A DNA stretch of 47,713 nt, from positions 1 to 47,713 of the forward strand of contig JBHLNZ010000020.1 in the NCBI GenBank assembly GCA_048941015.1, given 5' to 3'. The position numbers were made by a program, and so were the translations under genes. Origin of the DNA: Promethearchaeota archaeon (GTDB lineage Archaea; Asgardarchaeota; Lokiarchaeia; Sigyniarchaeales; SOKP01). Every line of letters begins with the position of its first letter. The first letter of the stretch is position 1. The notes beneath the pieces are model-generated. The model had not been told where the DNA came from, did not search any database, and saw nothing but the letters and a program-made list of their open reading frames with translations. Below, one piece after another: positions 1,981-39,202 of the stretch.

Positions 1981-2949
1981 TTATCTACTTTCCGAGCTCA
2001 ATGTTCTAATCTTATTATTAAAACTTTCGAATTCATTTAGAATTTTATTCGAGACAAGATCAAAAACCACTGTTAGGGAATACATACGTCCTGAACTGTA
2101 GCTCTCAGCTAAGCTCAAAATTGTAATGAAGCTTTTTTCATTTTTATGGAATGTTGGAATAATATATTGCCATTTGGAAAAGAAGATATATTTTTTACTT
2201 AATCGAAGGGTTTTTTCCAAATATTTCATATCTAAGGTATCATTCATTATTTTAGATTCTAACAGCACCCATTCCCTTGAAATAAATTGAACCTTTTTCA
2301 TTAATTTATACATGATGAAATTTTCAGAATTTTGATTTTGATAAATATAATAAGTGAATGGCAACAATCCTGGAATGTAATAACTATTCTTTGGTAATCT
2401 GAATTGTATCCAGATTTTCGTAATCATCCTATAAGAAATGTAGATGAGGTAAAAACCAGAGATGTAATTGATTAATTTTGAAAAATATAATTCTGGCCAC
2501 AGAAAAAAAGCAATTAAATAAAACATTATAATTCCTCCGGATATTAATGCTAAATATATATTAATCGCTCTATCTATAAAAAACCGAAATCTTTTTTTGG
2601 TGAAAGGAAATAATAAAGGAATTTTTGAAGCTCCCATAAAGTCAAGAATTATATGTAAATCATAAAACAAAAACCCAATCGTCCAAGCTATTAAAAAAGA
2701 ATGATGAGTTATTAAGGTAAAAATAAATGCAAATGGCAGCGAAATTAATAATCCAACAAAAAATGAATGAGAAATTCCTTTATGAGATAATAAATTAGAT
2801 TTTCTAAATTTTTTGAATGGTTCTAAAAAGATATCGAAATCAGCTAAAACTGCCATTAATCCTCCAAATAAAACGAGTTCAAATCCAAATGAATTCAATG
2901 TAAAGATACTAATTATTATTCCTATTAGAAAATGAGTGAAAATATCCAT
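1981..2949 (-). CDS. Membrane-bound metal-dependent hydrolase (YdjM/LexA-binding family)
   Basis: MDIFTH, ADFD, HKGISHS, HIILD motifs; several TM helices. Confidence 0.8.
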   Translation of the reverse strand: MDIFTHFLIGIIISIFTLNSFGFELVLFGGLMAVLADFDIFLEPFKKFRKSNLLSHKGISHSFFVGLLISLPFAFIFTLITHHSFLIAWTIGFLFYDLHIILDFMGASKIPLLFPFTKKRFRFFIDRAINIYLALISGGIIMFYLIAFFLWPELYFSKLINYISGFYLIYISYRMITKIWIQFRLPKNSYYIPGLLPFTYYIYQNQNSENFIMYKLMKKVQFISREWVLLESKIMNDTLDMKYLEKTLRLSKKYIFFSKWQYIIPTFHKNEKSFITILSLAESYSSGRMYSLTVVFDLVSNKILNEFESFNNKIRTLSSESR

Positions 2950-3202: not shown

Positions 3203-3568
3203 TCAACACCCAACATCTGGTTGCAATTGAATCCTACTGTCAGGATATAAATCAAAATAAATGTTATCACGAATTGGATTAAATTTTTTCATAACCCCAT
3301 TTTCATTAGGGCCATAAGCAAAAATTCCTACGTCTTCATATATCTTATCTTCTTCAATATTTACGAGTAATTGCATATAATTATGGATATATCCTTCATT
3401 AATAGGGAAGATATAATCAGTTGTATTTTGCATCTCTAATTTGTCAACTAAAGCTAGACACTCGATAAACGTAGCATCATCCTTTACAAGAAGATTATAT
3501 TCTTTACCTTTTTGTAGTCCTTTAATAGGTAGACTAATTTCAAACGTAATTTTTTTAACTATTACCAC
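3203..3568 (-). CDS. Putative beta-grasp (MoaD/SAMP/Urm1-like) protein ending in Gly-Cys
   Basis: Pattern KITFEI...LLVKDDATFIECL...QLLVN...DLYPDSRIQLQPDVGC resembles the ThiS/MoaD C-terminus (L..GD.I.I.P.V.GG), with GC in place of GG. Confidence 0.55.
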   Translation of the reverse strand: MVIVKKITFEISLPIKGLQKGKEYNLLVKDDATFIECLALVDKLEMQNTTDYIFPINEGYIHNYMQLLVNIEEDKIYEDVGIFAYGPNENGVMKKFNPIRDNIYFDLYPDSRIQLQPDVGC

Positions 3569-3593: not shown

Positions 3594-3869
3594 TTAAATT
3601 AACCCCCTCTCTTTTAATAGATCAGGTAAATCTCTTTTTAGCAGATAAGATGTAGTATATTTTTTATCTCCGTCAACCATTACACAATTTCCGTGTAAGT
3701 TTAAGTTTCTTGCTTCATCAGAATTTAAATTTTTGGTGTTATATTTGATATATTTCATGTATGGAGTAAGTACTTCAAAAATTCTGTTCATAAATTTATC
3801 CCATTCACAAGCACATGCGTCTAGTGGAATATAAATTTCTACTTTTAACTTATTATCTATCTCATTCAA
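3594..3869 (-). CDS. Small thioredoxin-fold CxC protein, ArsD-metallochaperone-like (91 aa)
   Basis: Probable start TTG 3869 after GGTG SD; the ORF-track extension overlaps the ferredoxin gene. KVEIYIPLDACAC and NCVMVDG parallel ArsD IFDPAMCC and LLLDG. Confidence 0.55.
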   Translation of the reverse strand: MNEIDNKLKVEIYIPLDACACEWDKFMNRIFEVLTPYMKYIKYNTKNLNSDEARNLNLHGNCVMVDGDKKYTTSYLLKRDLPDLLKERGLI

Positions 3870-3909
3870 AATAGACACCAATATTATTTGAACATTCTTT
3901 ATGCGATTT

Positions 3910-4239
3910 TTAACCGCAGTTACACGATTTCTTCTCGTTTTTAGCACGAGCTCTTGCATTCCATAAGCAACCACATCCTTCAATTTCTTGCATAATAATT
4001 GCTTGGGTTGGACAATTTCTACTGCATGCACTACATTCTGTACAGAGCTCAGGATTATTAATTTCGAACTTACCATCACTATTTGATACAGGGAGTCCAA
4101 AAGGACATATTTCTCCACATAACCCACATCCAGTGCATCTTGAAGGTTCGATAAAAATCTTAATATCTAAAGCTTTGAATATATTCTCTAAAGAACTTGT
4201 TCCACAACAAGAGTCTTCTTTTATTTCTACCATACTCAT
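3910..4239 (-). CDS. hgcB: 2x[4Fe-4S] ferredoxin, HgcB-like
   Basis: CTGCGLCGEICP and CTECSACSRNCP (HgcB C(M/I)ECGAC-like), then EGCGC and a Cys-rich tail SCNCG; directly downstream of the hgcA-like gene. Confidence 0.75.
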   Translation of the reverse strand: MSMVEIKEDSCCGTSSLENIFKALDIKIFIEPSRCTGCGLCGEICPFGLPVSNSDGKFEINNPELCTECSACSRNCPTQAIIMQEIEGCGCLWNARARAKNEKKSCNCG

Positions 4240-4300: not shown

Positions 4301-5959
4301 TTAAAAATATATTATTCCAATTACTAAACATAAAATCGAGATAATTAATAAGGTTAGATTAATTTTTCTGAAAACAGGATATTCGATTTGAATTTCTCGA
4401 GGGCTTGTAGCCATAGTATAACCACTAAATGACATAGTTGAAAAGAAACTGATCCAAAAGTAAAAAACGATACTCCATAAGATCTTAAAGATTGAATTTT
4501 GAATGAAGAGATTGATTAAACTTAAAATGATAACATTAAGTGTTCCGAAAAATATACTTTTGTATAAAAATTTCCTTGTGAATTTAGAAAATGGAAATAA
4601 GTATGCAATTATTACATTAGTTATTATAATCCAAATTGCTAATTCTAGAACCCACCATAATTTATTCATCCAGTTTAAGGCAATCAATATAATTGTTAAT
4701 CCTAATAATGGATACAGAAAAATTTTTCTAAATAAAAATGTTGTATGAGTAATAAATGCACGACTTCGGTGTGGAATTGTAAATTTAGCTAGTTTCATTT
4801 TTTCAGGTTTTTTATTAGGTTTATCTTTTAAATAATTAGGAATATCTTTTGACCATACTGGCCCATATTTAATTTTATAAGGAAATTCTTTAGAGTCTAT
4901 TCTAAGTTGTGGAATGGCAACGCCTCCTGCAGATAATTGAGGAAGAATTAAAGTCCTATTTTCAGTAAAGTTTTGAATTCCTGTTGCTCTAATTGCTTCT
5001 ATAAGTTGGTTATTTCCAAAATCATTACCGCGAGCAGCACACCATACATTAATTCCATTAGAATCAACACATAAAACCCATGCATCAATACTTTTGATGT
5101 TTCGCATTACATTGATATAAGTATAATCATAATTTGCAGTAACAATAATAGGAGAATCTTTATCAGGATTCCCTGATTTATATACTCCGGGCTCAATAGG
5201 CACCCTATCAATTTGTCCCGTAAATAAACACCTATATATTCGAAATTGAGATGATAGCCCTTTAAACTTTCTCTGTTCAGGGAAATAATAACCGGGTTCG
5301 TTATCATTATTAAATATAGCTTTTTTCAGTACAATAGCCTTGATAGTACCATGTTTCCATTCCTTTTGTTCAGCAATTTCAAATCCGATCGGTTGTATAT
5401 AATTGAAAAACCATTTTAGGAGAAAGGTACTTTTTAATTTAAGTCTTCTAAGTTTTTTCCTGTACCACCATCTCTTAACATGGAAAGCTAACTTCCAAAA
5501 ACCAGAAGGAACAAATTCAGCTGCTAAAATCAAAATCCCATTTTTTTTTAATGCTTTCCAAGAATTTCGGAGAAAAATTTGTTGTTCAAATGGTCGCAAT
5601 TCAGAGAGCATGAATTTACTAACAATTATATCCTGCGATTGTTCTTCTACTGGTAAATCTATGAATGAGCCAATTTGATAAGTAAGCGATCCCTGTTTTA
5701 AATCAGAAGGATAATTTTTCATCGCATAATCAATCATTTCAAAGTTAATATCTATTGCTTTAATATTATTTCCTTTATAGGCTAATTTTGTTGCTAGTGA
5801 TCCTGTACCACAACCTACTTCTAATATTGAGTTTGCTGAATTAATTTTTTCAATAATCCAATCTTCTACTTTTTTATTCACACCTTTAGTAAGAGCTGTG
5901 AATTTTGAATCATATGATTCTGGCTCTTCTTCCAGTTTACGCATGTATACTACTGCCAA
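4301..5959 (-). CDS. hgcA: Fusion of class I SAM-dependent methyltransferase with HgcA-like corrinoid domain and C-terminal TM bundle
   Basis: Motif I LEVGCGTG. Corrinoid domain IEPGVY..GNP...SPIIVTANY, GINVWCAARG (NVWCAARG at 5027-5050), LILPQL, YGPV..DIP.YL. About 5 TM helices ending MSFSGYT..TS....E, like HgcA MNFTG.T..TS. Confidence 0.8.
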   Translation of the reverse strand: MAVVYMRKLEEEPESYDSKFTALTKGVNKKVEDWIIEKINSANSILEVGCGTGSLATKLAYKGNNIKAIDINFEMIDYAMKNYPSDLKQGSLTYQIGSFIDLPVEEQSQDIIVSKFMLSELRPFEQQIFLRNSWKALKKNGILILAAEFVPSGFWKLAFHVKRWWYRKKLRRLKLKSTFLLKWFFNYIQPIGFEIAEQKEWKHGTIKAIVLKKAIFNNDNEPGYYFPEQRKFKGLSSQFRIYRCLFTGQIDRVPIEPGVYKSGNPDKDSPIIVTANYDYTYINVMRNIKSIDAWVLCVDSNGINVWCAARGNDFGNNQLIEAIRATGIQNFTENRTLILPQLSAGGVAIPQLRIDSKEFPYKIKYGPVWSKDIPNYLKDKPNKKPEKMKLAKFTIPHRSRAFITHTTFLFRKIFLYPLLGLTIILIALNWMNKLWWVLELAIWIIITNVIIAYLFPFSKFTRKFLYKSIFFGTLNVIILSLINLFIQNSIFKILWSIVFYFWISFFSTMSFSGYTMATSPREIQIEYPVFRKINLTLLIISILCLVIGIIYF

Positions 5960-6011: not shown

Positions 6012-7097
6012 TTATTTCCAAAATCCTTTCTTTCTAAGGTATTTTCCTAAATAAACTATGGAAAGCATTACTGGAACTTCCCAGAATAAACCCATTGTTG
6101 TTCCCAAAGCAGCTATAGATCCGATTCCATATATAGCAATAGCAGTGGCGATTGCAATCTCGAAATGACTTGAAGAACCTATTATTACTGTGATTACTGC
6201 TTCACGATACTTCAATTTAAATAGTTTCGTTATTATAACATTATAACCAACAACTATAACAAAACCCACTAAGAGAGGAACTGAAACTAATAGTAATAAA
6301 TCGGGATTATGTATTAAAACATCACCATTTAAAGAAAACAATACGACTAGTGTTGTTAGTAAAGCTACTATTGATATTTTGCCCACAAAGGGTCGATAAG
6401 TATCATTAAACCAATCCAATCCTTTTGAAGAAACGATTATTCTCTTACTTATTATTCCTAAAAATAATGGTAAACCGATAAAAAATATCAACGATATTAG
6501 TAAAAGCCACGTATTTATTGGAATATTTTTAATTCCCGTTAATAAGGAAACCATACCAACATAACCGAAAATTATAGTGATCGTATTTAAACTGGTGGTG
6601 ATTACATTTTGCTCTTGGTTTCCTTTTGCCATCCAACCCCACACTAATACCATTGCAGTACATGGAGAACTGGACAATAAAATAATCGCAACTGATAGTT
6701 GTCTCATAGTTTCCGAAGACCCGGGAAGAAAAATATTGACCATTGCTAAACCAACGAATGGTGCTATTAACCAATTAGAAACTATAGTCATTATTATTGG
6801 TTTTGGGTTTCTCCCCAATTTTTTTAATTCAGAAGCTTGAATATTTAGCATTGCAGGATACATCATTAAAAAAAGGCATATACCTATAGGGATTGAGATT
6901 CCACCAATCTGTAATGCATCAATAGTTTCGCTAATTTGTGGGATTAACTGAGATAATATTATTCCAGTTATTATGCATAAAATTACCCAAAGAGGCAACA
7001 ATTTTTCAAAATAGTTAATTTTCCTCGATTTTACTTCTTCGGTTCGTCCTTCATCAGCTTTTTTAATTAAATTGCTTTCTAAATTTTCTTCAACCAT
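6012..7097 (-). CDS. acr3: Arsenite efflux permease, Acr3 family
   Basis: LMMYP, NWLIAPF, SPCTAMVLVW (catalytic Cys), SSHFEIAIA motifs; about 10 TM. Confidence 0.93.
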   Translation of the reverse strand: MVEENLESNLIKKADEGRTEEVKSRKINYFEKLLPLWVILCIITGIILSQLIPQISETIDALQIGGISIPIGICLFLMMYPAMLNIQASELKKLGRNPKPIIMTIVSNWLIAPFVGLAMVNIFLPGSSETMRQLSVAIILLSSSPCTAMVLVWGWMAKGNQEQNVITTSLNTITIIFGYVGMVSLLTGIKNIPINTWLLLISLIFFIGLPLFLGIISKRIIVSSKGLDWFNDTYRPFVGKISIVALLTTLVVLFSLNGDVLIHNPDLLLLVSVPLLVGFVIVVGYNVIITKLFKLKYREAVITVIIGSSSHFEIAIATAIAIYGIGSIAALGTTMGLFWEVPVMLSIVYLGKYLRKKGFWK

Positions 7098-7141: not shown

Positions 7142-7171
7142 GATTCAAATAAAAATATTCCGATTTGAATC
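7142..7171. promoter_or_regulatory. Inverted repeat, candidate ArsR operator
   Basis: GATTCAAAT (7142-7150), 12-nt spacer, ATTTGAATC (7163-7171), in the acr3/arsR divergent intergenic region. Confidence 0.5.
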
Positions 7172-7247: not shown

Positions 7248-7640
7248 ATGAAACAAAAAAGGAAATCAGAAATTAAAGGAATGCTATGTAGCTGTGAGGA
7301 ATGCATCGATAGTGAATATATATTTAAAAATTTGCAAAATTTTGGTTATAATTTAAAACACGATGATAATTTCAATAGCATTTTAAACATTTCAAATGCT
7401 TTGGGTAATAAAGAACGATTAACAATACTATTTTCATTAAAAGAAAAAGCTCGTTGCGTTTGTGAATTAGAAGCTATATTAGACAAATCTCAACCGTCAA
7501 TATCTCATCATTTGCGAGAGCTTGAAAAAGCAGATTTAATTAGGGGCTGGAAAAAAGGTAAATTCACCTATTATTCATTTTTCAAGGATGAATTAAAAAA
7601 ATATTTAGATCTTTTAAATCGGGAATTTAATTCAATTTAA
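7248..7640 (+). CDS. arsR: ArsR/SmtB-family metalloregulator
   Basis: ALGNKERL.IL, CVCEL (alpha3 CxC site), SQPSISHHLREL; extra N-terminal CSCEEC. Confidence 0.9.
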   Translation: MKQKRKSEIKGMLCSCEECIDSEYIFKNLQNFGYNLKHDDNFNSILNISNALGNKERLTILFSLKEKARCVCELEAILDKSQPSISHHLRELEKADLIRGWKKGKFTYYSFFKDELKKYLDLLNREFNSI

Positions 7641-7996: not shown

Positions 7997-8259
7997 ATTC
8001 CAAATTTTCTAATTTTTTACTAAATTTTGTTTTTAAGTTTAGCTGGTAAATATAATAATAAATTTTCTTACCCTTTTGATTTAATTAAATGAGGGTCATA
8101 AAAAATCATAAATTTAAGCGTAAGATTTTAAGTTCAAGGCATTAAATTTAAGTTTTTTGGTCTACAAAACAGTTAACGCTAAATATAAATATGTAAATCG
8201 CCATAAACATAATGTTCATAAAATAATCTTAAATTAGTTGGTAAAATTTGCATAACAAT

Positions 8260-9471
8260 ATGTCAAAATACTATCGCATTATTACTCCAAATGAAGTTAA
8301 TATTTCACGAGATGATATCTTCTATAGGGATAAGTTTAATGATATCATTAATTATCTAAAGGTTATGTTAACCAACAATGAAGAATCAATTATACAGCAG
8401 TATATCGAACCTAAAGGAAAACTTCTTATCAATATCTCTCCTGGAACAGATATAATTGATTTTTTAAAGTTAATCTCGAAAAATTATTATCTAGATTTTT
8501 TGTTATTAGATTATGAGCAAGTTTTAAAGAATCAAGATAATTTCTATGATAATTTTAGTCATATCTTAAAACTTATTATTGAAGAGAAAAAAATTATAAA
8601 TGATAAGGACGAAGATATAGAAAGAAGTGGAAAATTAAAAAGAGAGAATAAGATATCACGGTTATTATTAATTAATCAACATGAATTGTCAACAAATTTA
8701 CTTGAAGAGAAGCAACTATTAAAAACTTATTTAATCTCTCAGAAAAATTCTGATAATAACATAAATTATATTGATCAAGGGATAATTTTAGTCTGGATTA
8801 ATAAAAATGTTCATGAAATTAAAGAAAATTCTAGAGATATCTTTCAAGTCTTTGATATGTATGTAAAAGTTCCAATCTTAAATAGAATTGAAAGAGAAAC
8901 AATACTCAGAAATTTTTCTGAAAAAAATCCTAAAATTGTATTTAATATTGATAAGATTGTAGAGTTTACTCATAATTGGGAGATAAAGGATATTACACAA
9001 TTATTAAAAGTCGCTATTTTTAAACATTTTCTAAATGCTGATCTTAATGATAAATCTAATGAAATAACTGATATTATCATAGATCTTATTGAATCTGATG
9101 AATTTATTCCCTCAATTCTTACTAAAGATAATGATAAAAAGAATAATTCCACGGAAATAAATAAAGATCGAGATGTAAATCGTAGCTTCAATTCTATTGA
9201 AAAAATTATTAATGAAATCCAGAATGAACCAATGTCAGAATTTATGTTAAATCAGTTATATGAAAATGCTGTTTCAAATAATTATACTGAATTATTAATA
9301 ATAATAGATAAACTTGAAAAAAACGCGATCCTCGAGGAAAATGATAAAAAGATAATAGCAAGATATCCATTTATTTTAAATGACAGCCCAACTAAAGCAC
9401 GGATTAATTTAGAGAAAGCAAAGAAAAGGATTGACAATATAATACGAGCATTTGAAAAAAAACATGCATGA
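8260..9471 (+). CDS. Degenerate (probably inactive) AAA+-fold protein
   Basis: PKGKLLINISPGTD in place of PKGILL.GPPG.GKT; FDMYVKVPILNRIERETIL and lid-like region resemble Cdc48/FtsH AAA modules. Start ATG 8260. Confidence 0.6.
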   Translation: MSKYYRIITPNEVNISRDDIFYRDKFNDIINYLKVMLTNNEESIIQQYIEPKGKLLINISPGTDIIDFLKLISKNYYLDFLLLDYEQVLKNQDNFYDNFSHILKLIIEEKKIINDKDEDIERSGKLKRENKISRLLLINQHELSTNLLEEKQLLKTYLISQKNSDNNINYIDQGIILVWINKNVHEIKENSRDIFQVFDMYVKVPILNRIERETILRNFSEKNPKIVFNIDKIVEFTHNWEIKDITQLLKVAIFKHFLNADLNDKSNEITDIIIDLIESDEFIPSILTKDNDKKNNSTEINKDRDVNRSFNSIEKIINEIQNEPMSEFMLNQLYENAVSNNYTELLIIIDKLEKNAILEENDKKIIARYPFILNDSPTKARINLEKAKKRIDNIIRAFEKKHA

Positions 9472-12400
9472 GGAGAAAAAAACGGCTTCTTCATTGAATA
9501 TCGAGGAAAAGAATCATAAGTACTTTGCAAAAAGAAATATTTTTATAAAAAAAGTTATCTTAGAAAACTTTTTATCATTCCAAAGGGATGAAGTCGATTT
9601 TTCAGGAGATTCAAAAGAGGAATATCCGAGGTTTATTTTAATTATTGGTCCTAATTGGTCAGGTAAAACTTCTATTTTTCAGGCAATTAAATTTGCTTTA
9701 GGAAGTAATGAAAGAGATGAACGATATAAGAAATGGTCTGATTTTATTAGGAATGGTCAAGATCATACGATGGTAGAGCTTCACATTAAATATGATAATA
9801 AATTAGTTAAAATAAGAAGGATAGTGATGAAAGGACAGTCTCCTTTCTATGAAATTGCGAGAGAAGCTAATGGATCTTTTAAAAAAATTCACGCATTTGA
9901 GGTACAAAAGCTTATTTCAGATTTCAATATTAACCCAGATAATCATTTTGCATTTGTAAGCCAAGGAAAAATCGATACAGTTAAAAATCTTAAGCCAATT
10001 GAACTATGTACATTTATAGAAGAAGGAATTGGTTTAAAGGGATTGAGAGACGAGATTTTACAACAAAAAAATAGTATAACAAATTTGAATAAAGAATTTC
10101 ACTCTATAGTGAGCAAAAAAAATTCGCTAAATATTAGTCTTGAACTTCTCCAACCCAAACTAGAACGTCTCACTCAAAAGAAAAAATTGTTAGAAATAAA
10201 AATAAGTTATCAAGATGAATTATTATGGGCAAATAAACATGTAATTGAAGAAGAAATCAAAATTTTGAAAAAAAAAGTTGAGAGTTTTCAAATTGAAATA
10301 AATAAGATGAAAATAGAAGCGAAAAAACTTGAGAACTCAATTAAAGAAAAATTATTGAAAATTAGGGAGCTAGATGAAGAAATTAATGAAATTTCTAAGA
10401 AATTAGGTGAATTGAGCTATAAAAAGCAAGGATTAATTGATCAAATCGAAACTTGGCAATTAAAAAAGAAAGAAGCAAAAAGGGAATTAGATAGTTTATC
10501 AGAAAGTATTTCTAAAATAAATAAAATATGTGAAAATTTTAAGTCCCAAAAGGACAGTATAGATAAAGAAATTGCAGCTATAAAAAAAGAAAAACATTCA
10601 ATAAAGTTTAAGATTGACAATTTAATAAAAGAACAAAATGAGTTAATAATAAAGATTGAACAGAATAAGGAATTTTTAGATAAGTACAATCGATTACTTT
10701 CAAAAAAGGAAAATTTGGAGAGAAAAATTGAGGAAAATACTTTAAAAATTAAAGATATAAATCACGATATAAATGAAATTTTTCAGAGCTTTAAGGATAT
10801 TGAATATAAATTAGATAAAAATAAGTGGTTTTTAGAAAATCCTTCAAGATCTTTATTAGATCAACTCGATAAAAATTTAGAAAAAATTAGCACAGAAATT
10901 TATGAGATTGATAACAAATTAAGGAGAATCGAATTTGAAAAGTCTAAAAAAGTGCAAGGATTAAAACTTTTAGAAGCGTCATTAAAAGAACGAAAAATAA
11001 TCCTTCCCTCTAATATTAATATCTTAAAAGAAGAAATTACGAGAAGAAATCTGGCAGTTAAGGGGCCCATAATAGAGTATCTCAAGTATGATGATGAGTT
11101 AAGTTATGCAATAGAATCTGTTCTTGGTGAAAAATTATTATATAGTTTTGTTGTTAAAGATTGGGACACTTTAAATTTACTAAATAAATTGAAAAAAAAA
11201 TACAATGCATATTGTAATATATATATTCCTAAAGAGGTGAGGATTGCTCCTCTCTCTGAATTTTCTGCTGATGGGGTCATTGGATACATAGCGGAATTGA
11301 TTAATGTTATTGATAATGACATAGATATTAAGAAAGTTATTTATTCCATAGTTAAAAATTGTTTAGTAGTAAAAGATTATTATTCGGGAAAAAATCTTTA
11401 TAAAAATCATGATTTTAAAGGAAAATCTGTAACTTTAAAAGGAGAACAAATAATTTCTTATAAATATGTTTATGAAACGCCTTATATAAAGAAATTAAAA
11501 GGTTTATTGAGTGCAGGAACTCAAAAAGAACAATCAATATTGTTAGAGCATCAAATAAAGACTTTAAATGAACAGATTATTCAACTTAAACTTGACCAAT
11601 CGAAGTTAGACATTAACCAAAAGGAGATTTTCCGTAAAAAGGAGGCATTTAACGATTTACTATATAATTTTAATCAAAAACAACGATTAACCAAAAGGAA
11701 AAATGAACTATATCAATTGATTTACGACTTTGAGCAAAATAATAAGGAGATCAATGAAAAAGTTAAATCACTAAAAATTCAAATAACTCGCTTAGAAGCT
11801 CAAAAAGATCCTGAATTTTTTAAATGGAATGACCGAATTAAAGAGATACCTAATGAATTGAATTCATACAACGAAAATTTGAAAAAATGGGATTTACAAT
11901 TAAATCAAAATTTAGATACATTAAAAGAGATTAAAGAAAAATTAAACGATTATAAAATGAAACTAAATAATATAAATTCCGAATATCAAACTAAAAAAGA
12001 AAATTTTCAAAAGGCAGATAATCAAGCATTTGAAACTTATAGAAACTTAGAAAATGTTGACCTTGAAATTGAAAATGCTGAGAAAAAAGTAGCGGAGTTT
12101 AAGGAATTAAAAACAATTTATCAAGAAGAAAAAGAAGTAATTAACAAAAATTATATTCAACTAAAATTGAATTTAGAGCAAGAAATTATCAAAATTAACT
12201 TATTAAAGCAAGAAATACTTAAGAATGAAAGAGATTTAGAAAGAGTTAAGCGTGAAATAGGCTCAAAAATCTTAGAAAAAACTGAGATCCGCTCAATTGA
12301 TGAAATAAAATTAGATCTCTCAAATATCGAAAAGGAACTATTAAAATATTATGATGTGGACGAATCATTAGTTGTAGAAAAAGAACAAATAATTGCAGGA

Positions 12401-12958
12401 TTGAAGCAAATTACGAAAAATCAGAAAGATTTAGAAAAAGATATAAAATCTGCAATAAAAACCGAAGGTAAAATGGAAGAAACCTATTATCAGAAATTTA
12501 AATTAGTCCTGAATGAATTAAATGAAAAAATTAATCAAAAGTTTGAAAGTACAAATATAAAAATATATAGTTTATTGGAATTAACTGGTGAATTTGAAGA
12601 ATTGGGAATAAATATTAAAGCAGCTACTTCAAAAGATCAATTGAAATCGTGCACTGCTTTAAGTGGTGGTCAGATATCTATGGTTTCGATTTGTTTAATA
12701 CTTTCATTACAAGAAATTAAACCATCATCGCTCTGTATGTTTGATGAAGCGGGTATGTTTTTAGATGATAAGAATTCAGAAGCCTCATATCAGATGATAA
12801 AGGCTACACTTGAATTAAATCCGATTCAATTGATAATTTTCTTGCCAAATTCTTCAAAGAGTTTATATCAATTAGCAGATAGGATAATTGGAGTAGCTCG
12901 AGTTGGTAAGAATGAGATATCAACAATATTTAAACCAAAAATAATTAAAAACCGATAA
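9464..12958 (+). CDS. smc: SMC ATPase, SMC5/6-like
   Basis: Walker A GPNWSGKT, Q-loop FVSQ, long coiled coils, hinge (GPI....YAIESVLG..L.SFVV), signature LSGGQ, Walker B MFDEA, QLIIFLP. Start overlaps the upstream stop. Confidence 0.9.
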   Translation: MHEEKKTASSLNIEEKNHKYFAKRNIFIKKVILENFLSFQRDEVDFSGDSKEEYPRFILIIGPNWSGKTSIFQAIKFALGSNERDERYKKWSDFIRNGQDHTMVELHIKYDNKLVKIRRIVMKGQSPFYEIAREANGSFKKIHAFEVQKLISDFNINPDNHFAFVSQGKIDTVKNLKPIELCTFIEEGIGLKGLRDEILQQKNSITNLNKEFHSIVSKKNSLNISLELLQPKLERLTQKKKLLEIKISYQDELLWANKHVIEEEIKILKKKVESFQIEINKMKIEAKKLENSIKEKLLKIRELDEEINEISKKLGELSYKKQGLIDQIETWQLKKKEAKRELDSLSESISKINKICENFKSQKDSIDKEIAAIKKEKHSIKFKIDNLIKEQNELIIKIEQNKEFLDKYNRLLSKKENLERKIEENTLKIKDINHDINEIFQSFKDIEYKLDKNKWFLENPSRSLLDQLDKNLEKISTEIYEIDNKLRRIEFEKSKKVQGLKLLEASLKERKIILPSNINILKEEITRRNLAVKGPIIEYLKYDDELSYAIESVLGEKLLYSFVVKDWDTLNLLNKLKKKYNAYCNIYIPKEVRIAPLSEFSADGVIGYIAELINVIDNDIDIKKVIYSIVKNCLVVKDYYSGKNLYKNHDFKGKSVTLKGEQIISYKYVYETPYIKKLKGLLSAGTQKEQSILLEHQIKTLNEQIIQLKLDQSKLDINQKEIFRKKEAFNDLLYNFNQKQRLTKRKNELYQLIYDFEQNNKEINEKVKSLKIQITRLEAQKDPEFFKWNDRIKEIPNELNSYNENLKKWDLQLNQNLDTLKEIKEKLNDYKMKLNNINSEYQTKKENFQKADNQAFETYRNLENVDLEIENAEKKVAEFKELKTIYQEEKEVINKNYIQLKLNLEQEIIKINLLKQEILKNERDLERVKREIGSKILEKTEIRSIDEIKLDLSNIEKELLKYYDVDESLVVEKEQIIAGLKQITKNQKDLEKDIKSAIKTEGKMEETYYQKFKLVLNELNEKINQKFESTNIKIYSLLELTGEFEELGINIKAATSKDQLKSCTALSGGQISMVSICLILSLQEIKPSSLCMFDEAGMFLDDKNSEASYQMIKATLELNPIQLIIFLPNSSKSLYQLADRIIGVARVGKNEISTIFKPKIIKNR

Positions 12959-33125: not shown

Positions 33126-33554
33126 CTAATCCATCATATCTTCAAGAGCTTCTAATGCCAATTCAATAATTTCTTGAAAAGCCATAGCATCTTGTAAATT
33201 ACCTTCTACAGTGATATCTCCAGCCATGTATGCTGAAGTAGCATCTACCTCACCGAGAAGTAATCCTGCTCCAACTTCTTTAGTAGCTGAGAACGTGAAA
33301 GATGGATTATCGACATCACCTTCTCCAAATTCTAAAGTACCATCATGAGCTTTTAACCAAAATTTGGCATCAGCGTCAGTTATAATCATTTGGATGGTAA
33401 TATCCATATCTTCTAATTCTTCCTTAAGATCCTCATTTTCATCTGCAACTTGCTTGAATACTTCATATACCTTTAAGGTGTCATTAACATCCGAAGCTGC
33501 AGCGCCAGCATCCATTTTTTCTTTCATCCATTTTAATAATGATTCATCAACCAT
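33126..33554 (-). CDS. SCP2 sterol/lipid-binding domain protein (acidic), copy 1
   Basis: GEVDATSAYMAGDITVEGNLQDAM; start ATG 33554 after an AGGTTG SD. Confidence 0.85.
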   Translation of the reverse strand: MVDESLLKWMKEKMDAGAAASDVNDTLKVYEVFKQVADENEDLKEELEDMDITIQMIITDADAKFWLKAHDGTLEFGEGDVDNPSFTFSATKEVGAGLLLGEVDATSAYMAGDITVEGNLQDAMAFQEIIELALEALEDMMD

Positions 33555-33768
33555 TTTAATTTTCAACCTTCTTTTTGTTATTTGTATTTTATTTAATTTC
33601 GTGTTTAAACAAATACTACTTATTATAAACTTTTAGGATTTAAAAAGGTTTTATTTCGTCGATATTTAGATTTAAAATTCCCAAATAAATATTAAACCAA
33701 GAGAGAAAAAGAAAAAATAAAATTTTTTGAAATTGGTTTTAAGTACTCATTATTAATGAGTATTGAAT

Positions 33769-34197
33769 TTAATCTGTTAAATCTTCAATTGCTTCAATGG
33801 CTAATTCAATAATTTCCTGAAAAGCCATAGCATCTTGAAGATTTCCCTCAACTGTGATATCTCCAGCCATGTATGCGCTGGTAGCATCAACTTCACCGAA
33901 TAACATTCCTATACCAACTTCTTTAGTGGCGGAAAATGTGAAAGATGGGTTATCGACATCTCCTTCCCCATATGTAAGTGAACCTTCTGTTGCTTTCATC
34001 CAATATTTGGCATCAGAGTCCGTAACAATCATTTGGACAGTAATGTCCATATCTTCTAATTCTTCTTTAAGATCTTCATTTTCTTCGCCAATCTGTTTGA
34101 AAAGTTCAAACATCTTTAAAGTGACACCGACATCCGCGCCAGCGGCGCCACCGTCCATCTTTTCTTTACATTCATTTAATAATCCTTCGTCAACCAT
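33769..34197 (-). CDS. SCP2 domain protein (acidic), copy 2; tandem paralog
   Basis: Highly similar to copy 1, including the leader AAGGTTGAAAA.TAAAATGGTTGA. Confidence 0.85.
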   Translation of the reverse strand: MVDEGLLNECKEKMDGGAAGADVGVTLKMFELFKQIGEENEDLKEELEDMDITVQMIVTDSDAKYWMKATEGSLTYGEGDVDNPSFTFSATKEVGIGMLFGEVDATSAYMAGDITVEGNLQDAMAFQEIIELAIEAIEDLTD

Positions 34198-34488
34198 TTT
34201 AGTTTTCAACCTCTTTTATAAACCTTTCTTTAATTATCTTAAAGTTTTTTATAAGTTAATTTTTAAGGAGTTGTGATTAAAGATAATTCGTTTTGATTTA
34301 AAAAGCTTTAATTTTTAACATGAGTTAGCAAAAAGTTTTTATTGATGTAAAATCAAGATCTAAAGGCTAATTACTAACAATTTTGAGAAGAATAGATTTA
34401 ATCTATCATTAAAAATCTTAAGAAGTAGTGTTATTTTATTTATGCTATGATTAAATGCTAAATTATTTGGATTTAATTGAGAAAATAA

Positions 34489-34596
34489 TGGCGCCCACAG
34501 CGGGATTTTCATAGTGCGTGTAATACGCAACATTTTTTGAACCCGCGTCGCAGGAGTGACAGTCCCGAATGCTAGACCGGGCTACACTATGTGGGC
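34489..34596 (-). tRNA. tRNA-Asp(GTC) with 30-nt intron in the T-loop (about 59/60) and encoded CCA
   Basis: Reverse complement GCCCACA..CGGGA CTGTCAC TCCTG..GCGGG TTCAAA[intron 34506-34535]T CCCGC TGTGGGC G CCA. Confidence 0.9.
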
Positions 34597-34852
34597 ATAA
34601 AAGATTAAGAAGAACTCTAAAAATAACAAATTTATAACAATTGAAATAATTAAAAATATAAAAATTTTATCTTATAATTATCTTAAACTTAAATTTACAT
34701 AATATTATCTGAATTCGTATCTCAAAAATCTTTTTTTAATATTCAAGAGAGTATTAATATCGATATAAACAAATTTAAAGGAGAAAAAAGATTGAATAGC
34801 TAGAGGTATAAGAAAATTTTTTATATATCTAATAAGGCGTCAAAACTTTTTT

Positions 34853-35293
34853 ATGATCAATCGTAGAGCTATAAGTAATTTATTAAAGAATTTAGAAGGA
34901 GATAAGGAGGATTTTATAAAAGGTTTAGATATGATCATAAAAGCAGGGGTAAAAATCGTGAATTCAACCGAGGAACTTAAGGAAGAATTGATTGGATTTG
35001 ATGATATTTATCAAACATCCGTAATAGATCTTGGTTTTAATTATTGGCTCCAAGTTTCTGATGGTAAGTTAAGCTATCAAAAAGGATTAAATTCTGATGC
35101 TTCTTTTAAAATGAATTATACTAAAGAATTGATTATTAAGATTTTAAAAGGGGAGATTTCTGGAACAGATGCCTTTATGAAGGGTAAAATTAAGGTTGAA
35201 GGAGAAATCTCTCAAGGATTAAGGTATGTGAAACTTTTTCGAATTTTCACGAAGTATTTAGAAAAAAAGAATGGAAATTCGAATCATAATTGA
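34853..35293 (+). CDS. SCP2 domain protein, copy 3
   Basis: ILKGEISGTDAFMKGKIKVEG motif. Confidence 0.8.
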   Translation: MINRRAISNLLKNLEGDKEDFIKGLDMIIKAGVKIVNSTEELKEELIGFDDIYQTSVIDLGFNYWLQVSDGKLSYQKGLNSDASFKMNYTKELIIKILKGEISGTDAFMKGKIKVEGEISQGLRYVKLFRIFTKYLEKKNGNSNHN

Positions 35294-35413
35294 GTACTTA
35301 TCACCTTAATATTAAAGTCAAATTTATATAAGTATTCCTTATTATAAACAATAAAAATTTGTGAAGAATTTTCCCGTAAATAGATTGATTTTAATATAAG
35401 GTATTGCATAGTT

Positions 35414-35869
35414 ATGATTGACACAAAAGTAATGAATTTGATGTTGATTGAACTTGACTCTAGTGATGAAAAATTCAAGAGTGCATTAGATAAATTCATA
35501 AAGATGGGAATAAAACTTATTCAGAGTTCTGAAGAGTTTCAAGAAGAGTTAAGTATGTATAGCGATCTTCTATTTCATGTATTTATTAGTGACATAGATT
35601 ATAATATCTGGTTAAAGAAAATAGGTACAGAATTATCCTATAACACTAGTTTTTATGAAAAAGCTTCAGAGGAGTTAAGAACAATCCATTTTATATTAAC
35701 AAAAGAAATTATGAAAAGAATTTTCAGGAAAAAATTAGATCCTACAGAAGGATGGTTTAAGGGTATCATCAAAATTGATGGCGAACTTTCAGATGTTATC
35801 CTGGCAAGAAACTTATTAAAATCTTTCACTGAGTTATTTAGCTATCATTTAACAAACAAGTTAGTTTAA
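35414..35869 (+). CDS. SCP2 domain protein, copy 4 (divergent)
   Basis: LDPTEGWFKGIIKIDGEL motif; N-terminal half like copy 3. Confidence 0.7.
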   Translation: MIDTKVMNLMLIELDSSDEKFKSALDKFIKMGIKLIQSSEEFQEELSMYSDLLFHVFISDIDYNIWLKKIGTELSYNTSFYEKASEELRTIHFILTKEIMKRIFRKKLDPTEGWFKGIIKIDGELSDVILARNLLKSFTELFSYHLTNKLV

Positions 35870-35949
35870 TTTTTTTTCAATTGAACTTGAAAAAATTTTT
35901 TATAAATCATAAATAACAATATTATAACTTCAATCTTATTTAAATTAAA

Positions 35950-36024
35950 GGGCCTATAATCTAGTCTGGATAGGGTGCCCGGCTTCGGACTGGGATGTCG
36001 CAGGTTCGAATCCTGCTAGGCCCA
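35950..36024 (+). tRNA. tRNA-Arg(TCG)
   Basis: GGGCCTA/TAGGCCC acceptor stem, CCCGG CTTCGGA CTGGG anticodon arm, GCAGG TTCGAAT CCTGC T-arm, A20 in the D-loop. Confidence 0.9.
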
Positions 36025-36145
36025 CTCTCTAAAATATACTTTTTTATCCCATTTTTCATAGAAAAAAGCAAATAATGTCTTCTTATTCATCTTAATAAAT
36101 TATAAAGACTAGACTTAAATGTTAATTTTAACCAAAAAGGATCTT

Positions 36146-36434
36146 AGAAGATATTGAGAGAATCATACAACTTATGAGAGATTTAAAAATAAGAAAAAAT
36201 TGGTGTTGAAGATGCGAGTGCTTATCGTATATAAATCTTCAAGTTCCTTCTTATGGGTAGTTTTTCGGAAGAACGGAGTTAGAATTCATAATTTTCGATT
36301 TGATACAGGCAAAGAATCCGTTTTCTTATCATATCCCGATTTCGAACCCTATAAGCAAATCTTTCTAAAAAATAAAAAACGAATTAAGTCTTAAGAGATA
36401 CCCTTTAAAAAAAGATTCTATCTCAATATCTTCT
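36146..36434. repeat. 14-bp inverted repeats bracketing about 290 bp (MITE-like?)
   Basis: AGAAGATATTGAGA (36146-36159) and TCTCAATATCTTCT (36421-36434); encloses a 64-aa ORF. Confidence 0.4.
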
Positions 36435-36713
36435 TCAATTTTGAAAAAATAGTTTGTGTACAAAAATTTTACGTACAAAAAATTTGAATTTTATTTTTCT
36501 ATATTTACAGAATGGTGTAAAGAGTCTATTTAACTATTTTATCTTTGTTTTTTATTAAAATTTAATTTTGTGTAAATATATAAATATAATTTTTTGGCTT
36601 TTGTACACGAATGATAGTTTCTTGACACAAAAAGAAAACATTTATATACAAAAATTTCCTAATTTATCTTTAGCTAACAAATCACAAATTTATTTTATAA
36701 CAAAATAAATATT

Positions 36714-37514
36714 ATGATTGTATTAGAAAGCCCCTTTCCTGAATTGGAAGAAAAAGATAATACATTAGAAGTATTAGGAATAGGTTTAGTGTCCATTTCA
36801 GTAAAAACACATAATATCATATTTAGAAAAGGGATTGGTTCTTCGCAATTAAAGATATTAATAAAAATTTATAAAAAGGAAATTCTCAAAAAGAAAAAAG
36901 GAAAATTAGTTGACTTAAGGGGAACTTACACTGTTTATGTACACTTTTACAAGGCTAAAAATGACATAGTTACCCTTTTTTATATTAATGAAAATAATAA
37001 ATTGATTAATTACGATAAGTTATGTTTAATTTCAAATCACCTTTTTAACTTATATAAGGAAAATGCTCCTAATTCAGAAATTAATAGAATTTGTAAGAAC
37101 ATAACTCCAATTTTAAGCGGTATATCTGCATTATTTATAATAAGTACTTGCGGTCATTGCTTCTATAAAAGGATTAATAAAGAAAAGAAATTTTTAGCAA
37201 AAAATTATATCCAAGTAGGGGGATTTATTTCAGCAATTTTAGCGTTTTCAAAGGAAATATTATGCCAAGAATCTGGAGAGACTCTGCAAACAATTAATTT
37301 TGAAAATCAACAATTCGAACTTCAGGTTAAGAATGAAGTTATATTTGCTTATTTATTTAATAACAATAATAATTCGGATAATATTAAACGATATGTTAAT
37401 CTCCTTGTTGAAGAATTTTTCGAGATGTATAGCACCAAAATAGAGAAATTTAACGGTGATCTTACCCCTTTCGATGAATTTGAAAAAGTTATAGATAAAT
37501 ATTTCGTGATATAA
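36714..37514 (+). CDS. Longin-like domain protein
   Basis: C-terminal LFIISTCGHCFY...GGFISAILAFSKE.....LQTINF....F...F.GDL..F..F, typical of Asgard longin folds. Confidence 0.65.
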   Translation: MIVLESPFPELEEKDNTLEVLGIGLVSISVKTHNIIFRKGIGSSQLKILIKIYKKEILKKKKGKLVDLRGTYTVYVHFYKAKNDIVTLFYINENNKLINYDKLCLISNHLFNLYKENAPNSEINRICKNITPILSGISALFIISTCGHCFYKRINKEKKFLAKNYIQVGGFISAILAFSKEILCQESGETLQTINFENQQFELQVKNEVIFAYLFNNNNNSDNIKRYVNLLVEEFFEMYSTKIEKFNGDLTPFDEFEKVIDKYFVI

Positions 37515-37636
37515 TCCATTTTATGTAATGTGTTAAAGTTTTTATAGTAAATTTGAAATTTTTTTTGGCGGGTATCAGTCACGGGGGATATTTGCACGAA
37601 AAAATATTAATAAGTCTAATCTATAATAATATAGTA

Positions 37637-37993
37637 ATGACGGTTTTGTTAGATTTGGATTTAGTTGTAAATAATTTAGTAGAGGAATTTGGCAGCTTAG
37701 TCTATTTTATTTTAGTTTCCTCCGAAAATGGAGCTGTAATCAAATCCTATATTAACGAAGAGGAATTTAACAAGGCCTCAATCTCTTTAAATATTTCTCA
37801 ACTTTACGAGCTTGCGGAAGAAACAGCAGAATCAATAGGACTACATCTCCCAGATTTTAATATAATCCATTCTGATAATTATTATATTTTATCTATTAAA
37901 CTTTTAGAAAAATTGATTATTTTGCTTACTACTGATCAAATTAAAGTAAAGGAAGTATTTCGGATAATCAATAAATCAGTTGCTCCTTCCTAA
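37637..37993 (+). CDS. Roadblock/LC7-like protein
   Basis: Start ATG 37637; helix, ILVSSENGAVIKS, helix, beta-strands; 118 aa. Confidence 0.65.
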   Translation: MTVLLDLDLVVNNLVEEFGSLVYFILVSSENGAVIKSYINEEEFNKASISLNISQLYELAEETAESIGLHLPDFNIIHSDNYYILSIKLLEKLIILLTTDQIKVKEVFRIINKSVAPS

Positions 37994-38079
37994 AAAAAAA
38001 ATCTTAAATCTTAAATATTGGTCTCTCTAAATCATATATATTATTTTAATTTTAATAAATTAAACACTTAAGAAGTGAA

Positions 38080-38580
38080 TTGAGTATGCATTATGAGAGA
38101 AATCAATATTCTGAAGGTTTCAGTATTTGTGGATTAATCATTGCGGGAGCTTTTTTATATTGGGGTTTTCAGACTTTTTGGAGTCCTTGGATTGTAGGTC
38201 ATTGGAATCTCTGGTGGTTAGGTTTCATCTGGATTGCAATTGGTTTAGCAATAATATCAAGTCAAATTTATGCGCTCACCAATAGAGGGAGACTTAGAAC
38301 GATCATTAAAAACGAGATTTTACAAAATCCGAGTGCAAGCGTCGAAGAGTTGGCTCAAAGTACAGGTATTAGCATTAAGGATGTAAGAGCAATTGTTTTG
38401 GATCTAAAAGGAAGAGGCGAATTGAGAGGCAAATTTTCTTCAAAAACAGGTCAAATGAAAAATGTAGAAGTGTCAGAAGAAGTCCCAGAGCCTCCAAAAG
38501 GAAAATTTTGCTCAAATTGTGGAACTCCGATTAAGAAAGAGGACGCAATGTATTGTGAATTTTGTGGTGCCAAAATTTAA
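38080..38580 (+). CDS. 2-TM + winged helix + zinc-ribbon protein, paralog 1
   Basis: Two TMs, SVEELAQSTGIS HTH, CSNCG...CEFCG. Confidence 0.75.
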   Translation: MSMHYERNQYSEGFSICGLIIAGAFLYWGFQTFWSPWIVGHWNLWWLGFIWIAIGLAIISSQIYALTNRGRLRTIIKNEILQNPSASVEELAQSTGISIKDVRAIVLDLKGRGELRGKFSSKTGQMKNVEVSEEVPEPPKGKFCSNCGTPIKKEDAMYCEFCGAKI

Positions 38581-38701
38581 TTTTTTCTTTAATATTTTTT
38601 TATTTCTTATTTTAGTATTTTCTTAAATTTTAAAAATTGGACTCTAAAAATCATTTAAATCTTATTTCTTTTTTATAATTAAAACAAAGAAAGTGATATA
38701 A

Positions 38702-39202
38702 TTGAAATACAAAAGAGACCAATACACCACTGGTTTTTCAATTTGTGCTTTATTAATTGCAGGCATGTTTTTCTATTGGGGAATAAATGCTTTCCTTAAC
38801 GGTTTTTGGCGATTTGGTATAAATTGGATGGGCTTTTTATGGATTGGTATAGGAGCAGCAATAATGGCTAGTCAAGTTGCTGCTTTAACTAATAGAAGCA
38901 AATTAAGAAATATTGTACTTCAAGAATTTGAACAAAACCCAAATATTTCAGTAGAAGAAATAAGTGCTAATACAGGTATATCAGTTAAAGATATTCGAGG
39001 AATAGTTTTAGATTTAAGAGGAGAAGGAAGAATTAGAGGAAAATTTTCCGAAACTACAGGAGAAGCTAAATCGATGGAAGTTGTTCCAAAAACAGAAGAA
39101 CCCAAATTAACGCCGGAAAAAGCAAAATTTTGTCCTAATTGTGGCACCCCAATTGAGCGAGAGAGCGCTGCCTTCTGTGCCTATTGCGGTTCAAAATTAT
39201 AA
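38702..39202 (+). CDS. 2-TM + winged helix + zinc-ribbon protein, paralog 2
   Basis: Same architecture; CPNCG...CAYCG; clear similarity to paralog 1. Confidence 0.75.
   Translation: MKYKRDQYTTGFSICALLIAGMFFYWGINAFLNGFWRFGINWMGFLWIGIGAAIMASQVAALTNRSKLRNIVLQEFEQNPNISVEEISANTGISVKDIRGIVLDLRGEGRIRGKFSETTGEAKSMEVVPKTEEPKLTPEKAKFCPNCGTPIERESAAFCAYCGSKL

Follow-up and report, generated by a model that had tools for sequence, protein, structure and literature searches.

A CpaM-like methyltransferase fused to an HgcA-like corrinoid protein in an arsenic operon of an Asgard archaeon

What is a protein that joins a methyltransferase to a membrane-anchored, HgcA-like corrinoid domain, and what does it methylate? 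This question is raised by a gene at positions 4301-5959 of a 47,713-nucleotide stretch of DNA, hereafter the window, from a Promethearchaeota archaeon (contig JBHLNZ010000020.1, assembly GCA_048941015.1). A first-pass annotation made from the sequence alone had described the gene as an S-adenosylmethionine (SAM) methyltransferase fused to an HgcA-like protein and had proposed that the fusion identifies the enzyme that loads or reactivates the cobalamin methyl group. Our analysis of profiles, phylogenies and gene neighborhoods indicates that the gene is a variant form of the catalogued CpaM / HgcAB-like system, and suggests that the fused protein probably methylates arsenic-like elements rather than mercury.

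The gene is a single minus-strand open reading frame (ORF) that fills 4301-5959 and encodes 552 amino acids from a TTG start at 5959. We favor this start over the ATG at 5944, five codons further on, because orthologues open with MAVxYMRKLE (alignment A2). Residues of the AlphaFold2 (AF2) model and invariant residues are counted from that ATG (547 aa); five must be added for the 552-residue ORF. The parts of the gene, in the order of the protein, are:

4301..5959, minus strand: the whole gene, a CpaM-like SAM methyltransferase, an HgcA-like corrinoid domain and an anchor of five transmembrane (TM) helices (ORF, profiles, AF2)
5324..5953, minus strand: class I SAM methyltransferase domain, residues 3-212 (NCBIfam NF043040 and Pfam Methyltransf_11/25/31)
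5204..5323, minus strand: conserved linker with a helix (alignments A1 and A2; AF2 helix 230-242)
4778..5203, minus strand: HgcA-like corrinoid-binding domain, a Rossmann domain of the CdhD or corrinoid iron-sulfur protein (CFeSP) type (Pfam CdhD, PDB 2h9a, Foldseek)
5027..5050, minus strand: cap-helix motif NVWCAARG, which retains the equivalent of HgcA Cys93 but has other residues in place of the canonical GK (NVWC invariant in alignments A1 and A2)
4304..4777, minus strand: five TM helices (AF2 helices, alignment A1)

Profiles and the structure model agree with the first-pass annotation that one frame carries a Rossmann methyltransferase, a corrinoid domain and an HgcA-type TM tail, and they add that it lies on the minus strand. 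The CpaM-like character that had been proposed for the N-terminus is likewise borne out, both by a methyltransferase tree considered below and by the CpaM model NF043040, which matches residues 3-212 over profile positions 2-215/216 at 136.8 bits (below its cut-off of 180), with the second-best NCBIfam family at 44.5 bits. The methyltransferase (MT) domain has motif I (LEVGCGTG), in which its sole cysteine sits, and an invariant acidic residue after beta-2; G44, G46, G48 and D65 are unchanged in 41 homologues, down to 23% identity. By this alignment, the class I SAM-binding motifs are intact. The Foldseek neighbors of the domain are generic class I methyltransferases (3sm3, Coq5 and PmtA 8ys9). 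At the junction, the consensus EPGYYxPxxKxFKGxxSQLRIYRC and a helix are free of stops and frameshifts, and the linker helix is the counterpart of the N-terminal helix in stand-alone HgcAB-like proteins (alignment A1). Beyond it, Pfam CdhD (PF03599) matches residues 243-344 at 57.1 bits against a cut-off of 24.8, covering only profile positions 256-359 of 387, and the corrinoid domain matches the CFeSP gamma subunit in the PDB (2h9a) at E 7e-10. The part outside the MT domain matches the published integrative HgcAB model 9a0b_A by Foldseek (TMt 0.59).

The AF2 model, built from 41 homologues (pLDDT 90.7, pTM 0.86), shows a Rossmann methyltransferase followed by the linker helix and then by the corrinoid domain, in which NVWC forms a short cap helix; five long helices (390-422, 430-453, 459-481, 485-509 and 515-546) come last. 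The pTM value hints at a fixed domain arrangement in the model. A complex prediction of MT residues 1-215 against HgcA-like residues 236-547, run with alignments, scored 0.10 against a mark of 0.32 and is not used as evidence. With five TM helices, the C-terminus would lie on the far side of the membrane; the fifth helix stands where HgcAB-like fusions have their ferredoxin (alignment A1).

Such a composite gene could be an assembly or gene-calling artefact that joins two neighbors, and the genome itself offers a model for this, since a paralogous locus has both genes separate and adjacent. However, the frame is single and uninterrupted, and the linker is conserved and confidently folded. Among 5.8 billion proteins searched, at least 120 full-length homologues are listed at 62-100% identity, drawn from independent NCBI, JGI, ENA and Logan assemblies and labelled Prometh-/Loki-, Hod-, Heimdall-, Hermod-, Odin- and Thorarchaeota. 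Of 301 genomes sampled from the phylum, 108 have a match at E <= 1e-30, among them 58 of the 68 that represent the window's family and 24 of the 27 that represent its genus; about 55 sampled-genome matches span query residues 1-547 without a stop. Because of this conservation across independent assemblies, we reject the artefact, which the first-pass annotation had named as one result that would undo its reading, and we give it next to no chance. The architecture and its conservation are direct observations.

The second issue is whether the corrinoid half is HgcA proper. The window protein does keep HgcA traits, namely the Cys93 equivalent, which is invariant in alignments A1 and A2, and the five C-terminal TM helices of the AF2 model. 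The defining motif of HgcA is NVWCAAGK, or N(V/I)WCA(A/G)GK (PMC5893877), whereas the cap helix of the window protein reads NVWCAARGND. Residues 253-547 match the HgcA model NF040863 at 169.2 bits (cut-off 275) and the HgcAB-like model NF043039 at 181.2 bits (cut-off 285), the latter over profile positions 14-256 of 350 only. We searched 1.8 billion cluster representatives and sorted the matches by architecture, which gave four types: canonical HgcA, with the cap NVWCAAGKG[TS] and a length of 320-360 aa; fusions of an HgcA-like part with a ferredoxin (A::B); the window type (MT::HgcA-like, or MT::A); and triple fusions with a C-terminal ferredoxin (MT::A::B), of which there are seven, 582-644 aa long. 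A quick maximum-likelihood tree of the corrinoid and TM parts (118 rows, with CdhD from the same genome as outgroup) has a canonical clade of 70 rows (SH-aLRT 95) and a second clade of 46 rows (support 86) that takes in every MT-fused, triple-fused and A::B form as well as the window protein. The clade is directly observed in this tree; by it and the profiles, the window protein is a member of the HgcAB-like sister clade and not a canonical HgcA. A canonical identity is rejected on three counts, the HgcA score of 169.2 bits falling short of 275, the GK of the cap being replaced and the protein lying outside the canonical clade.

Other assignments fit in part. Under the HgcAB-like model, the score is below 285 and a C-terminal ferredoxin is absent (there is no CxxCxxCxxxCP in the ORF), whereas the clade and the CpaM partner fit. 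Compared with the CFeSP large subunit (CdhE/AcsC), the corrinoid domain matches, but the N-terminal [4Fe-4S] and TIM-barrel domains lie outside the match; the genome's real CdhD is on another contig (C34). The profile search that the first-pass annotation had suggested thus has a divided outcome: the two halves match the CpaM and HgcA models, but with scores below the NCBIfam cut-offs. In a published tree that agrees with ours, Lin et al. (2023) found Thor- and Lokiarchaeota sequences in a "fused HgcAB" subtree (PMC10083202). The first 327 poorly aligned positions of the alignment behind that tree were trimmed (PMC10083202), and this trimming may have removed the fused methyltransferase domain.

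This placement bears on the possibility that the protein is a working mercury methylase, that is, an HgcA orthologue with a built-in SAM domain, so that the Asgard archaea that carry it would be methylmercury producers. The cobalt-ligating cysteine, the five TM helices and an HgcB-like partner with cysteine tails are all kept, and Asgardarchaeota figure among the putative methylators in surveys that rely on the relaxed motif N(V/I)WCA(A/G) (PMC12484752). Against this stand the position outside the canonical clade, the lack of NVWCAAGK and the score below the HgcA cut-off. Moreover, the two tested members of the sister clade, Pyrococcus furiosus and M. methylutens, which fall in the "fused HgcAB" subtree, make no methylmercury (PMC5893877; PMC10083202), although this argument is indirect because both have A::B fusions without the cysteine tail. 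We regard a mercury methylase as quite unlikely.

If the protein is not HgcA, what does the fusion tell us? We compared 80 species-representative loci fetched by the pattern GINVWC[AG]A, 55 with the canonical GK cap and 25 with a non-GK cap. A CpaM-like neighbor was found at none of the 55 canonical loci, in keeping with the earlier statement that canonical HgcA has no such domain, whereas a CpaM-like domain or neighbor is present at 24 of the 25 non-GK loci, the remaining one lying on a contig too short to tell. The order of the modules is always MT, A, B, but the gene boundaries differ: MT separate from A::B, MT::A separate from B, or MT::A::B. The window's state, MT::A with a separate ferredoxin, is seen at all 19 Asgard loci (19/19) and at one Anaerolineales and one Poribacteria locus, and A::B with a separate MT at three bacterial loci among the 80. 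The clade therefore extends beyond archaea (bacterial loci L056, L067, L049, L069 and L087), with pairs of MT plus A::B in deltaproteobacterial, Victivallaceae and unclassified bacterial metagenome-assembled genomes and MT::A in those of Anaerolineales and Poribacteria. At two loci (L098 and L099), a methyltransferase of 212-222 aa lies directly upstream of the A::B gene; one triple-fusion gene that was examined stands alone, and one divergent MT::A gene has its ferredoxin downstream.

The same genome holds the unfused arrangement on contig C92 (L012:4891-6725), where the gene for a CpaM of 219 aa, which at 244 bits exceeds the cut-off, immediately precedes an A::B gene whose 366-aa product scores 372 bits, above the HgcAB-like cut-off, and has the cap NVWCGACGDD. 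No ars genes were found near this copy. A deazaflavin-dependent nitroreductase-family gene follows it, and two isoprenylcysteine-methyltransferase-like genes are nearby.

The per-domain phylogenies, which the first-pass annotation had also suggested, proved congruent. In the MT tree, 38 CpaM-like domains are split from six other class I methyltransferases (SH-aLRT 91), and the MT and A trees share the window's nine-row group (support 99 and 100), a Thorarchaeota group (100 and 100) and a 17-row group in which every triple fusion and every separate pair falls, together with four MT::A forms (98 and 97). The strict co-occurrence and the co-evolution of the modules are thereby directly established. 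Because the MT and A trees are congruent and the fusion points shift, MT, A and B appear as an old unit that has co-evolved while the boundaries between its genes were redrawn several times. A direct functional link between the methyltransferase and the corrinoid protein is strongly supported by these comparisons, and the link is probably also physical. The association itself is already curated, as the NCBIfam name "corrinoid protein-associated methyltransferase CpaM" shows; what is new in the window is the fusion state. We found no published description of CpaM or of an MT::HgcA fusion in the literature searched. The Rosetta-stone reading of the first-pass annotation thus stands for the methyltransferase-corrinoid link, which co-occurrence and congruent trees support, but not for a loader of true HgcAB: the protein belongs to a paralogous clade, CpaM is present at 0 of 55 canonical loci, and HgcAB uses SAM directly in vitro (PMC11588087).

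The third module and two small ORFs lie downstream of the fusion:

3910..4239, minus strand: HgcB-like 2x[4Fe-4S] ferredoxin, 109 aa (NF040864, 50.5 bits, cut-off 99)
3594..3878, minus strand: small ORF of about 90 aa with a CxC motif (DACACEW), its start codon uncertain (tblastn 51-71% identity in L013, L015, L018, L021, L022 and L026)
3203..3568, minus strand: small ORF of 121 aa ending in ...VGC (tblastn 39-69% identity in L013, L015, L018, L021 and L022)

The ferredoxin gene is downstream of the fusion in all orthologous loci. Its product has two CxxCxxCxxxCP motifs, SCC at the N-terminus, GCGC after the second cluster and CNCG at the C-terminus; GCGC is conserved, and most orthologues end in CCG where the window protein has CNCG. 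In HgcB, cysteines are needed for mercury methylation (PMC11588087), and GCGC together with CCG or CNCG may, by parallel, be the equivalents of those residues (C73; C94/C95). The A::B fusions are without such a cysteine-rich ferredoxin tail. Neither small ORF has a match in Pfam or NCBIfam even at lax thresholds; Atlas leads point to Thioredoxin_3 (PF13192, 0.90) for 3594-3878 and to a weak beta-grasp, ThiS/ubiquitin-like assignment (below 0.8) for 3203-3568.

How might these parts work together? With moderate confidence, we propose a self-contained CpaM / HgcAB-like corrinoid methyltransferase in which a methyl group passes from SAM to cobalt and on to a thiophilic metal(loid), with arsenite as the leading candidate. 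The HgcB-like 2[4Fe-4S] ferredoxin would bring the cobamide that is bound through Cys in the HgcA-like domain to the Co(I) state. Cobalt in this state would then accept the methyl group of SAM bound by the CpaM-type domain, with CH3-Co(III) and S-adenosylhomocysteine as products, perhaps at every turnover or, less likely, for rescue only. The methyl group would then pass to a thiophilic metal(loid) held by the cysteine-rich tails of the ferredoxin at the membrane face. We infer the SAM-to-cobalt transfer because HgcAB uses SAM, because no other donor enzyme is conserved and because the fusion implies 1:1 stoichiometry; the electron path and the acceptor are likewise our inferences. The first premise, which the first-pass annotation had also put forward, is reported in the literature: HgcAB forms methylcob(III)alamin from SAM (PMC11588087). 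As to the second, no conserved methyl-donor enzyme of the MeTr, MtrH or MttB type was found in the approximately 30 loci examined.

A methyltransferase module joined to a corrinoid protein could instead serve for repair only, as the activation domain of MetH does. In such a scheme, SAM and an electron from the ferredoxin would re-methylate Co(II), and the catalytic donor, for example a methyl-pterin or methylamine, would be used through an unlinked enzyme. The MetH precedent is well established, the ferredoxin partner is always present, and the genome presumably has several other corrinoid methyltransferase modules. MetH or MttB have been proposed elsewhere as donors for HgcA (PMC12484752). 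Yet no pterin or methylamine methyltransferase is conserved beside the system in about 30 loci, the sister enzyme HgcAB takes SAM as its catalytic donor, and the strict 1:1 stoichiometry set by fusion exceeds the need of a rare repair reaction. We consider a repair-only role unlikely.

The case for arsenite as the acceptor comes from the genes upstream:

6012..7097, minus strand: ACR3-family arsenite efflux permease (TIGR00832, 267 bits, cut-off 282.8)
7248..7640, plus strand: divergent ArsR/SmtB metalloregulator (NF033788, 71.5 bits, cut-off 55)

The acr3 gene lies 52 nt upstream of the fusion on the same strand, and its product is the sole ACR3 match in a search of this 95%-complete genome. 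The regulator has a CVC site (RCVCELEAIL) in its DNA-binding helix and an N-terminal CSCEEC. A CVC site is typical of As(III)-sensing ArsR proteins, and its presence suggests a metalloid-type identity; a SahR-type regulator was considered and rejected on the same site. In the 150-nt spacer between arsR and acr3, positions 7142-7171 hold a perfect 9-nt inverted repeat, GATTCAAAT-N12-ATTTGAATC, a candidate ArsR operator that may also have arisen by chance because the region is very AT-rich. Relatives have the order ArsR; (DUF166), ACR3, (ArsM), MT::HgcA-like, HgcB-like, two small Cys ORFs and YdjM. Of 15 orthologous species loci, 9 have ArsR and/or ACR3 next to the fusion, or 10 of 16 with the window. 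In the Thorarchaeota group, at only 32% identity, 5 of 6 loci have ArsR directly upstream and in the same direction. In one Loki relative, a true ArsM (L013:5079-5960, 347 bits, cut-off 263) lies between ACR3 and the fusion. The ars context is thus directly observed, and arsenite becomes the leading acceptor candidate because a CVC-type ArsR and the sole ACR3 of the genome stand in front of the gene. On these grounds, a thiophilic metalloid such as arsenite is a plausible substrate.

A further specification is that MT::HgcA-like and HgcB-like form an ArsR-controlled, cobalamin-dependent methylase of arsenite or a related metalloid (Sb), a second enzymatic route to methylated metalloids that would not depend on ArsM; we offer this as a tentative suggestion that we would not bet on. 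If it were true, the native job of the HgcA superfamily would be metalloid methylation, and mercury methylation would be a side activity of the canonical branch.

Alternatively, the MT domain might methylate the final substrate (a metalloid, a thiol or a membrane lipid) and not cobalt, leaving the corrinoid-ferredoxin part for a second methylation, for reductive chemistry such as dehalogenation, or for substrate binding. Class I methyltransferases normally act on small molecules, one of the nearest folds is that of a peripheral-membrane phospholipid N-methyltransferase (8ys9, TMt 0.75), and the unfused CpaM on contig C92 weakly matches PmtA; a 2026 preprint reports halomethane dehalogenation by HgcAB (10.64898/2026.04.26.720869). 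However, the domain has no cysteine outside motif I and so no ArsM-type As(III) triad, and it scores 23.6 bits against the ArsM model NF008823, whose cut-off is 263. An ArsM-like role, with the MT domain itself as metalloid binder, is rejected on these two grounds. A direct methyl hand-over is the simplest explanation for the way in which the domain has co-evolved with, and become covalently joined to, the corrinoid domain, and methylation of the final substrate by the MT domain therefore seems to us rather improbable.

Several observations count against the proposed transfer from SAM through cobalt to a metalloid. The MT and HgcA scores are under the NCBIfam cut-offs. Co-transcription of acr3 and the fusion is presumed, and the 52 nt that separate them contain a T-run and a TATA-like element. 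Nearby ars genes are absent in 6 of the 15 orthologous loci, one of which (L024) has a MarR regulator instead. The genome also has a separate bona fide ArsM on contig C17 (L007:1279-2112, 352 bits, cut-off 263), which adjoins a MarR regulator; with this enzyme, and with the in-operon ArsM of the Loki relative, arsenite methylation is already covered, so that the corrinoid system may have another substrate. Among the canonical hgcA loci, ArsR is found at 10 of 55 and ACR3 at 6 of 55, and a frequent linkage of canonical hgcAB to ArsR or ars genes is known from the literature, with an arsenic function unproven (PMC7438021; bioRxiv 10.1101/2022.10.17.512643). When hgcAB was deleted in P. mercurii, resistance to As(III) showed no clear change (bioRxiv 10.1101/2022.10.17.512643). 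Finally, canonical HgcAB accepts SAM in vitro without a methyltransferase partner (PMC11588087), and a dedicated loader is therefore not chemically required.

The surroundings of the operon are also shared among relatives. A DUF166 (PF02593) protein, which weakly matches a DfsP (seleno)protein model, lies between arsR and acr3 in L013 (3227-3973) and L015 (4155-4898) and as a fragment in L022, and is absent from the window. Past the operon, a YdjM-family membrane hydrolase is encoded downstream (window 1981-2949, minus strand), and beyond arsR (window 8248-12958, plus strand) are genes for an unannotated 407-aa protein and an SMC-like protein of 1168 aa; all three genes have the same positions in the Loki and Heimdall contigs L013, L015 and L021. 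Further along, at 33126-39202, the ORF list has four 146-aa and two 166-aa ORFs on both strands, which may represent an array of paralogues.

What the HgcA superfamily does in the cell is a long-standing question, to which this branch offers a clean handle. With the donor module built in, cysteine tails on the ferredoxin and a setting in the main arsenic operon, SAM as donor and As, Sb and Hg as acceptors can be tested directly. The split between clades with and without CpaM points to two solutions for charging cobalt and is relevant to the use of SAM by canonical HgcAB, which has no recognizable SAM-binding domain. There is also a practical consequence, as surveys with the relaxed motif N(V/I)WCA(A/G) would count abundant Asgard genes as mercury methylators (PMC12484752). 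By clade and cap motif, the Asgard MT::HgcA-like genes are HgcA paralogues, and "mercury methylator" calls for them are likely false.

How does the window system compare with known systems? In MetH and CmuA, a methyl-handling or SAM-binding module is covalently joined to a corrinoid module, which allows a single polypeptide to load or reactivate its own cobalt. The folds are unrelated to those of the window protein, however: MetH has an activation domain that does not belong to the class I Rossmann methyltransferases, and in both MetH and CmuA a B12-binding Rossmann domain with His as the cobalt ligand takes the place of the Cys-on CFeSP type. A membrane anchor is absent from both. ArsM (NF008823) and the window's MT domain are both class I SAM methyltransferases found in ars operons, and in L013 the ArsM gene is directly upstream of the fusion; the fused domain differs in its ArsM score (23.6 bits, cut-off 263) and in having no As(III)-binding cysteines.

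With canonical HgcA and HgcB (NF040863 and NF040864; P. mercurii ND132), the window system shares a Cys-on CFeSP-type domain, five TM helices, a separate Cys-tailed 2[4Fe-4S] ferredoxin, SAM as the likely methyl source and frequent ArsR/ars neighbors. In contrast to canonical HgcAB, it has an MT domain, the cap NVWCAARG and a place in the other clade, with scores of 169 against 275 bits for HgcA and 50 against 99 for HgcB. With CpaM (NF043040) and the HgcAB-like protein (NF043039), it has in common the three modules and their order, a place in one clade in each of the two domain trees, a non-GK cap with cysteine and the CpaM N-terminal motif Y-M-[KR]-x-L-E...Y-D. The system scores under the cut-offs of CpaM, HgcAB-like, HgcA and HgcB alike, and it differs from the CpaM / HgcAB-like pair in its fusion point, with MT joined to A and the ferredoxin encoded by a gene of its own. 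Where A::B fusions have four TM helices followed by a cytoplasmic ferredoxin, the window protein has a fifth TM helix, and its free ferredoxin bears cysteine-rich tails; unlike the copy on contig C92, the window gene sits in an ars operon.

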